Assembly: GCA_965235115.1 (NCBI GenBank)
Contig: OZ249436.1
Span: 2,358,001 to 2,422,000, forward strand
DNA from: Laetmonice hystrix
Taxonomy: Eukaryota
Direction of reading: 5' to 3'
Length of the DNA: 64,000 nucleotides
This document shows, one piece after another, positions 22,412 through 25,400 of this stretch (its first letter is position 1; each line of letters opens with the position of its first letter). A model generated the notes under the pieces. It had not been told where the DNA came from, did no database searches, and worked only from the letters and a program-made list of their open reading frames with translations. A program made the translations under genes and the position numbers.

Positions 22412-25400
22412 GTAAGTAATGCACACGCTCACCACTAGGGGGCGCCGACGGGTGGGGGCCCCTGGCGGCCGCATGGATTTAGATGCTTTCATTCCCGTTT
22501 ACCTTTAGTTGGTATTCTCGGTACAACTAGTATTAAGTGTCTAAGATATAAAGCTATTATGGGCTCTTCATGATTTGTACCTATCCTTTGTAATATAACG
22601 GGTAAACTATGTATAAAAGCTGGTATTCTTAAGGCACCTTATCTACATTAGCAACAGAGCGATTGCTCGAAATATTATCTTAGATTAAAGTTTATGATTA
22701 ATCGTCGTAACCTGCCAATGGGGATCTGTTATACATTAATTTATTGAATGAAAAAAACAAACTAGTATTTAGTTATAGAGAGTTCATTTTATTTAATTGA
22801 TTATTGCAGTTTAAATGGTAGCCATGGCATACATCTTCGTTCTCCCTGAGACAATACGGTCGAATTCTCCAGACAACCTTGAAATAAGGATGTCATACGA
22901 TAGAACAATGCATACATCCTATCCCCATCTTCCTTCCTTCAAACAATGCTTTTACTAGATTTGGTTCCCAAGAATAAGATTGAAGAGCTGATAGAGCAGA
23001 GTTCATTGTTTTGATGTATGGAGTGGACGTTCCCGCTAGCTCTGTCTTTCTGCCCCCTCTCCACCTCAAACCTAAACAATAGCTGTGACGTATGAGTCGT
23101 AGACTTAGTGGGTGGACGTTCGCCACCCAACGCTTTACAGTACTGCCTGGGACGATAGGGATGGGGTAGGCCCTGGTACGATAGGGACGGGGTAGGCCTG
23201 GGACGATAGGGACGGTACGATAGGGACGGGGTAGGCCTGGTACGGTAGGGATTGGGTAGGCCAGGTACGATAGGGACGGGGTAGGCCTGGTACGATAGGG
23301 ACGGGGTAGGCCTGGTACGATAGGGACGGGGTAGGCCTGGTACGATAGGGACGGGGTAGGCCTGGTACGATAGGGACGGGGTAGGCCTGGTACGATAGGG
23401 ACGGGGTAGGCCTGGTACGATAGGGATGGGGTAGGCCTGGTACGATAGGGACGGGATAGGCCTGGTACGATAGGGACGGGGTAGGCCTGGTACGATAGGG
23501 ATGGGATAGGCCCTGGTACGGTAGGGATTGGGTAGGCCGGGTACGATTGGGATGGGGTAGGCCTGGTACGATAGGGATGGGGTAGGCCTGGTACGATAGG
23601 GGTGGGGTAGGCCTGGTACGATAGGGATGGAGTAGGCCTGGTACGATAGGGGTGGAGTAGGCCTGGTACGATAGGGATGGGGTAGGCCTGGTACGATAGG
23701 GGTGGAGTAGGCCTGGGACGGTAGGGATGGGGTAGGCCTGGTACGATAGGGATGGGGTAGGCCTGGTACGATAGGGATGGGGTAGGCCTGGGACGGTAGG
23801 GATGGGGTAGGCCTGGGACGATAGGGATGGGGTAGGCTTGGGACGATAGGGATGGGGTAGGCCTGGTACGATAGGGACGGGGTAGGCCTGGTACGATAGG
23901 GACGGGGTAGGCCTGGGACGATAGGGACGGGGTAGGCCTGGGACGATAGGGACGGGATAGGCCTGGGACGATAGGGACGGGGTAGGCCTGGGACGATAGG
24001 GACGGTACGGTAGGGATGGGGTAGGCCTGGTACGATAGGGGTGGGGTAGGCCGGGTACGATAGGGACGGGGTAGGCCTGGTACGATAGGGAAGGGGTAGG
24101 CCTGGGACGATAGGGACGGGGTAGGCCTGGGATGATAGGGTGGGGTAGGCCTGGGACGATAGGGACGGGGTAGGCCTGGTACGATAGGGACGGGGTAGGC
24201 CTGGGACGGTAGGGATGGGGTAGGCCTGGGACGATAGGGATGGGGTAGGCTTGGGACGATAGGGATGGGGTAGGCCTGGTACGATAGGGACGGGGTAGGC
24301 CGGGTACGATAGGGACGGGGTAGGCCTGGGACGATAGGGACGGGGTAGGCCTGGGACGATAGGGACGGGGTAGGCCTGGGACGATAGGGACGGGGTAGGC
24401 CTGGTACGATAGGGACGGGGTGGGCCTGGTACGATAGGGAAGGGGTGGGCCTGGTACGATAGGGACGGGGTATAGGCCTGGGACGATAGGGATGGGGTAG
24501 GCCTGGTACGGTAGGGATGGAGTAGGCCTGGTACGATAGGGATGGGGTAGGCCTGGCACGATAGGGATGGGGTAGGCCTGGTACGATAGGGGTGGGGTAG
24601 GCCTGGTACGATAGGGATGGGGTAGGCCTGGTACGATAGGGAAGGGGTAGGCCTGGTACGATAGGGATTGGGTAGGCCTGGTACGATAGGGATGGGGTGG
24701 GCCTGGGACGACAGGAGTGGGTGAGCTGGGTGAGCTGGGCTGTGACCGCAAGGTTCACCTCATCAATATGACAGATCGGATGGAGATATCAAGCAGGCCT
24801 GGACTAATGTTACTGTGAGAACAAACTCTGTCACGTGTAATAATTGTGAACCGTACCTATGTAAACATTTCAGTGAAAATGAACTCTATGTCATTCCCAT
24901 CTTACTGATCATATCATGTTCTTCTTCCCTTCCAACCTTTACATTTCTCAATGCGGGTTTACAGGTGATGAAGGTAAACGCTTTGCTTTGATTACCGTTT
25001 TCATTTACCATAACAACATTACTGGAGTTTCTGTAATAACATAATGTACCCGTAATCCCAACCCCCTTGAATTCCTGGGAACTTTATGGCAATGTTTCCT
25101 GAACCTTTGTCTATTTTTGTCTTTCGTGTTATATCCTATACCAAGTAATCCTCTCCCCCAAAAATTGTTGCGTTTTGGCAGAAAAATGGGGTTTCTAAAA
25201 ATCTCCAAAGTGTATGATTCGCTTTAGTCTGTGCCTTTTTATACATGATGCTGAAACATGCCTGTATGGCCCCCTACTGGTGTTTATTTTCTACTCCGCT
25301 CTCTGTCAAAGTTTGAGGAGGAAATACTAAAAACAGTATTCGGAACCACTGTCTTATTTCTGTAGATTGATCCTGTGAAAATACCAGATATCCAAATATC

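Follow-up and report, generated by a model that had tools for sequence, protein, structure and literature searches.

A nine-nucleotide V-M-K microexon, very probably real and alternatively spliced, in the unc-13 gene of Laetmonice hystrix

The unc-13 gene of Laetmonice hystrix very probably contains a real, alternatively spliced cassette microexon, GTGATGAAG, which is orthologous to the VLK exon of nematodes and arthropods. It was located in a continuous stretch of 64 kb of genomic DNA (hereafter the window), and we hold with high confidence that it is spliced in this animal. The explanation that best accounts for the evidence as a whole, and which we consider very likely, is a genuine cassette exon driven by an eMIC protein, likely in neurons, that extends the stretch linking the calmodulin site to C1. 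The event itself is already known from the 9-nt unc-13 microexon of C. elegans and Drosophila, which has been dissected functionally in the worm (PMC12287369).

The window covers, on the + strand, most of a single-copy unc-13 gene in an animal genome of 627 Mb. The exon chain was traced through C2B, MUN and C2C at one locus genome-wide; the 5' exons precede the window by 170-200 kb, the last exon follows shortly after it, and the gene extends over at least 260 kb. The host was assigned to the UNC-13/Munc13-1/2/3 type from the C1 exon, which displayed 92-99% identity to named UNC-13 proteins with the exception of one match at 82%. Over about 310 residues the window protein was 95.5% identical to the UNC-13 of Lineus and Haliotis. 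In a tree built from 38 of 55 rows (rows shorter than 230 residues and three unplaced proteins were left out), it was placed with moderate support among the spiralians, close to Lineus and to annelid-like rows; since rows were filled against a Lineus reference, the branch of the window is shortened. An exon at contig position C1:2190532 reads SPARIRWIGAFQKV and is taken here, from its motif, to be the calmodulin site. Some 190 kb separate it from the VSDL exon downstream, and searches of the interval G000:C1:2190532-2380321 detected no exon between the two. The microexon is positioned at the VS[DE]L/TM junction, between the calmodulin site and C1, in a phase-0 intron of 6,331 nt (22412-28742) that separates IPLVSDL from TMAASKR.

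Table 1. Features of the unc-13 gene and of the microexon, in window positions.
Feature	Position	Strand	Basis
unc-13 gene body in the window (C1, C2B, MUN, start of C2C)	22321..63877	+	
Upstream coding exon, ends IPLVSDL, followed by gtaagt donor	22321..22411	+	
89-nt AG exclusion zone, containing branch motif, pyrimidine tract and UGC	24874..24962	+	
Candidate branch point TACTGAT, putative branch A at 24908 (-57)	24903..24909	+	motif match only
TGC at -13, candidate eMIC-responsive UGC (putative function)	24952..24954	+	
3' splice site AG, ttacag/GT, acceptor 8.8 bits, inside the range of the gene's own unc-13 acceptors	24963..24964	+	
Cassette microexon GTGATGAAG, 9 nt, V-M-K, phase 0/0	24965..24973	+	rank, conservation, isoforms in relatives
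5' splice site gtaaac, AAG/GTAAAC, donor 7.5 bits	24974..24979	+	
Two YGCY (MBNL-type) motifs, +6 and +11 of the downstream intron	24979..24987	+	0.25 expected per 20 nt
Downstream coding exon TMAASKR...LNDEEL, acceptor tttcag	28743..28820	+	
Exon with C1 domain (PF00130 in homologs)	29294..29513	+	

All the elements described in the initial annotation (TACTGAT, pyrimidine tract, TGC and the AG/exon/gtaaac arrangement in the 6.3-kb phase-0 intron) were recovered at their sites (Table 1). The pyrimidine tract extends over approximately 24919-24949, with a pyrimidine fraction of 0.73, and CTGAT is found at -60. Inclusion of GTGATGAAG keeps the reading frame and would give VSDL-VMK-TMAASKR, as announced. 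As the microexon begins with GT, a donor-like CTG/GTGATG (window 24963-24970) is recreated when it is joined to the upstream exon, and recursive skipping via this recreated donor is conceivable.

Minisatellite arrays fill introns of the gene (window 3100-4300, 9300-11300, 16800-21300, 23214-24715, 45600-46700, 52000-53000 and 55200-56200) and yield long spurious open frames; one array stops 250 nt before the microexon. A very high-copy repeat, with contig depth above 14,000, occupies 28325-28455 in the downstream sub-intron. A 62-nt tandem repeat (5.4 copies, window 22031-22363) duplicates the acceptor of the VSDL exon together with its first 43 nt. The three nearest upstream copies, if used, give stops or a frameshift, and are thus decoy acceptors.

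For the ranking of candidates, 26 acceptors and 24 donors from the window's unc-13 gene served to train splice-site matrices. GTGATGAAG ranked first among 294 in-frame, stop-free AG..GT candidates of 3-51 nt in the host intron, and first among its 16 nine-mers (16.3 bits, against 4.2 for the next). On the whole + strand it ranked second of 10 high-scoring candidates, surpassed by a true 42-nt coding exon (40008-40049) from outside the training set. The pattern AG-GTN-HTN-(K/R/Q codon)-GT had a single match in the 64 kb window, on the + strand, and none on the - strand. The 201-nt flank of the microexon is single copy in the genome. Three DNA contig sets covering the site showed the exon, the splice sites, the TGC and the branch motif all unchanged, and two of them carried changes in the pyrimidine tract that add pyrimidines; the sets derive from one study and at most one sample, with differences too few to serve as a conservation test. 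That the exon would be a chance intronic sequence or a dead pseudo-exon is extremely unlikely: such a reading could draw on the 16 nine-mers lying between AG and GT in this intron, but the exon's rank, its rarity and the identical peptide at the same junction in relatives argue against it. A second microexon in the same intron was considered and rejected, the runner-up (26621-26659, 39 nt, 13.0 bits) having no TGC, no branch motif and no corresponding insert in a relative.

Orthologous introns were compared, as the initial annotation had suggested, by means of a metagenome scan. It returned 80 of 145 confirmed loci, and both flanking exons with the intron were located in 13. The V-[LM]-[KR] 9-mer was kept in all 13 two-exon loci among those returned. 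It formed a separate cassette in nine of them (VMK in L033, L046, L049, L061 and L071; VLK in L024 and L086; VLR in L072 and L073), while VLK abutted the upstream exon in L023 and L028 and the downstream exon in L025 and L026, which have the same sequence. Exactly one V-[LIM]-[KRQ] 9-mer between AG and GT was present in each of ten complete introns (the window and nine loci), with none antisense, against 0.18 chance matches expected in total by Markov resampling, the third-codon class having been broadened to Arg only after L072 and L073 were seen. The metagenome loci are non-independent samples. Among the 23 loci with a partial intron, several of which are the same species, the 9-mer was found in 11 and absent in 12, a split that carries no information on conservation. 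Loci with VMK were closest to spiralian proteins, chiefly of the leech Helobdella, and those with VLK or VLR to arthropods.

In arthropod-like loci VLK adjoins the upstream exon, the downstream exon or both (L023:4370-4378, L028:5475-5483, L025:368-376, L016, L019, L020), the variant in L019 being VFR. VLK runs directly into the flank on either side in L016 and L020, both of them long genomic contigs. This abutting is consistent with the loss of one or both flanking introns, and through its GT...AG ends such a VLK could provide an alternative 5' or 3' splice site.

The upstream architecture was also compared. The AG-free zone had a median of 58 nt at 17 orthologous microexon acceptors vs 31 nt at the acceptor of the next exon (Wilcoxon p=0.002, loci phylogenetically non-independent). 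The UGC, which the initial annotation had regarded as a mark of SRRM3/4-activated microexons, fared less clearly: TGC occurs at -13 here and at 11 of the 17 orthologous acceptors, against 1/17 and 8/17 at two control acceptors (pooled Fisher p=0.014; VMK loci alone p=0.05), the latter being that of the C1 exon. It is thus a modest marker of the microexon.

Proteins of relatives gave a second line of comparison; the counts cover the cluster members listed, at most 15 per cluster, and the isoforms are RefSeq gene models. Among the models listed, VMK was present in 11 and absent in 2 for Pomacea, and present in 3 (one also with VVK) and absent in 2 for Octopus sinensis. Gene models of O. bimaculoides, Candidula and Mactra also carry VMK, among the matches listed. 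VLK was observed in Haliotis rufescens, Gigantopelta (8/8), Limulus (4/6) and Penaeus (2/4), VIK in Mizuhopecten, and VMQ in Lingula and Macrostomum, again among the models listed. VMK is the common spiralian form, and the window differs in this from the invariant VLK. Skipped and included forms are both present among the gene models of Pomacea, Octopus, Lingula, Mizuhopecten, Limulus and Penaeus. Together with the genomic conservation, these isoform pairs support the annotated conserved, in-frame microexon upstream of C1. The expectation that gene predictors would miss it does not always hold, since RefSeq models of several molluscs do contain it.

The 3-residue insert was absent from all models listed for Biomphalaria glabrata (8/8), Patella vulgata (9/9), Mya (9/9) and the annelids Dimorphilus (3/3) and Helobdella (1/1), and from those of ticks and Ruditapes; insert-free species may reflect missed annotation or loss. 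On the vertebrate side, AM was found at the same VSDL/S junction in horse UNC13B, perch, killifish and hagfish, and the horse protein contains the VSDL-AM-SLVQ junction that the initial annotation had given for Munc13-1. All six lamprey models retrieved skip the site, and no amphioxus, hemichordate or tunicate entry appeared by name among the protein search matches.

Different inserts occupy the same junction in Mytilus, Dreissena, Mercenaria and sea stars. Across species, some inserts are stacked (VVK+VMK in octopus, VMQ twice in Lingula, VIK+ISRL in scallop) and others unrelated (of 8-23 residues in abalone and of 13 in Mytilus, with further ones in sea stars); insert-bearing rows are P0221, P0110, P0162, P0034, P0121, P0385 and P0392. 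Judged from these proteins, the host intron seems especially prone to gaining new exons. Two homologous 107-nt exons were observed elsewhere in the gene, just before C2B (window 36138-36244 and 37163-37269). Their peptides are 44% identical, both versions occur in mollusc, brachiopod and arthropod proteins, and the pair is almost certainly mutually exclusive. A 107-nt alternative exon of fly unc-13, DmeEX0010009, is given in PMC8797185, and nothing on a mutually exclusive unc-13 pair before C2B was found in the literature searched.

Regulation of the exon was addressed through the eMIC domain. A match to PF15230 (SRRM_C) above the Pfam cut-off was identified on contig C18; a cwf21 match lies 40 kb upstream of it in the same orientation, and the eMIC coding sequence is intact over two exons (RRRKGSPSHLDRRRIT and SARKRPVPYYRPSP). 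The presence of an intact eMIC domain in the genome makes neural inclusion driven by eMIC likely. The exon falls within 3-27 nt, preserves the frame and is preceded by a long AG exclusion zone, a pyrimidine tract and a branch motif in a host with an eMIC domain, all of which are features of the eMIC type; this upstream anatomy agrees with the eMIC code reported for fly (PMC8797185). Neural enrichment of VMK inclusion is very likely, its dependence on eMIC likely, and an effect on release rather probable.

In Drosophila, the 9-nt unc-13 exon DmeEX0010016 is classified as 'eMICdep' in table S2 of Torres-Mendez et al. (2022, PMC8797185); the VSEL-VLK-TMAA junction that the initial annotation had given for fly isoforms was found in lepidopteran proteins. 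The fly exon shares gene and length with VMK, which shows the traits described for eMIC exons (long AG exclusion zone, pyrimidine tract, branch motif and, as a modest marker, a UGC near the 3' splice site). The middle residue is M here, and the splice sites are not weak by own-gene matrices. In C. elegans, the 9-nt VLK exon, reported as invariant in nematodes and Drosophila, is skipped in olfactory neurons and included in motor neurons under the control of EXC-7 and MBL-1, and both isoforms are needed (Choudhary, Napier-Jameson and Norris, 2025, PMC12287369). It has in common with VMK the unc-13 gene, 9 nt, the frame, V-x-K and the linker between the calmodulin site and C1. Here, in contrast, the peptide is VMK, the host is a spiralian with multi-kb introns and an intact eMIC domain, and the upstream architecture is of the eMIC type. 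Neither mollusc nor annelid appears as a word in the main text of PMC12287369. No report of a spiralian unc-13 microexon was found in the literature searched, most subscription papers lying outside that search. The 2019 study of Torres-Mendez in Nat Ecol Evol reportedly deals with several bilaterians, octopus among them, and the unc-13 exon may already be listed there.

The worm system provides the main rival to eMIC-driven neural inclusion, which is the best inference. The exon could be real and activated by ELAV- and MBNL-type proteins that bind the downstream intron and recruit U1/PRP-40, eMIC being minor. Such control was demonstrated for the worm orthologue, which requires EXC-7/MBL-1 sites on its downstream side but does not depend on the upstream intron (PMC12287369); two YGCY motifs follow the exon here, and the downstream introns of annelid-like loci are often U-rich. 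It is nevertheless unlikely, because worm homologs are described as lacking the eMIC domain (bioRxiv 10.64898/2026.09.14.751627) that is present in this genome, the fly exon is eMIC-dependent (PMC8797185), and the YGCY pair varies in position, without conservation, among 17 relative loci. Both routes to inclusion can coexist. A real exon that is nearly constitutive, or not neuron-specific in this lineage, is improbable: both splice-site scores resemble those of the constitutive sites of unc-13, and VLK is contiguous with its flanks in L016 and L020 and included in every Gigantopelta model listed, but the species with both isoforms among their gene models, Pomacea to Penaeus, speak against it.

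Under eMIC-driven inclusion, the default would be the joining of VSDL to TMAASKR with VMK skipped. In cells producing an eMIC-bearing isoform of Srrm234, most likely neurons, VMK would be included, the distal branch point, the long AG-free pyrimidine tract and the UGC presumably promoting early spliceosome assembly. V-M-K would add to the length of the linker that joins the calmodulin site to the C1-C2B-MUN core, adjoining the basic KPRRKSIPL motif before the helix that leads into C1. We take this motif to be kinase-docking-like, and hypothesize that VMK affects the spacing of the calmodulin site or of KPRRKSIPL. Inclusion would probably tune vesicle priming by neuron type, as in C. elegans. 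In an AlphaFold2 model of Candidula UNC-13 with VMK (49 sequences), residues 1-186 have pLDDT <50; as VMK lies there in a low-confidence helix (160-169), the mechanism is not informed by this model. Solved Munc13-1 chains align only from 5 residues past the insert, leaving VMK outside.

Animals with the 9-mer include molluscs, a brachiopod, a flatworm, crustaceans and chelicerates, and it is also seen in annelid-like loci. Finding a 9-nt V-hydrophobic-[KQR] exon on each of the two protostome branches speaks for common ancestry, and we regard a protostome origin of the linker microexon, against the convergent origin proposed in 2022, as highly probable. The argument is tempered by the splice consensus, which itself favours V and K. 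Repeated emergence of V-x-K microexons in this intron would follow from that consensus, AG/GT at the start and AAG/GT at the end forcing V and K/Q/R: exon positions 1, 2, 7 and 9, including the GT start, fit it in 17/17 loci, and unrelated inserts share the junction in bivalves, abalone and sea stars. We nevertheless judge it improbable, given that length 9 and T at position 5 (a hydrophobic middle residue) are kept in 17/17 loci without being forced by the consensus, that none of the 13 two-exon loci returned is without the 9-mer, and that the exon is found on the spiralian and ecdysozoan sides of the tree.

Published accounts differ on whether the exon is ancient or convergent. In PMC8797185 the fly exon belongs to a set of four whose position is shared between fly and mouse, and convergence was favoured for it because the exon was not identified in all insects studied. 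The mouse Unc13b 6-nt exon is activated by SRRM4, as had been annotated, and has a predicted MAPK-docking site next to it (Quesnel-Vallieres et al., 2015, PMC4387716); it is called apparently unrelated in PMC12287369. The vertebrate AM insert, which may correspond to this mouse exon, occupies the same VSDL/S junction as VMK but has 6 nt instead of 9, and is a possible homologue. Inheritance from the last common bilaterian ancestor, with spiralian VM[KQ] linking ecdysozoan VLK to vertebrate AM and with regulators exchanged, is a tentative proposal that we hold as possible. An exon that starts with GT and ends with AG can, under this proposal, persist as an alternative 5' or 3' splice site when one of its flanking introns is lost.

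A switch of three residues in a core vesicle-priming protein alters the behaviour of worms. The microexon of this one genome is otherwise ordinary, and its added value is evolutionary: the spiralian data point adds a third bilaterian branch, and the question of ancestry can now be tested with genomes alone. It also offers a ready eMIC target for the neurobiology of annelids and molluscs. If the bilaterian proposal is true, the published convergence reading would be overturned, eMIC control would apply in flies, spiralians and vertebrates and ELAV/MBNL control in nematodes that lost eMIC, and the exon would be among very few neural microexons of such age.
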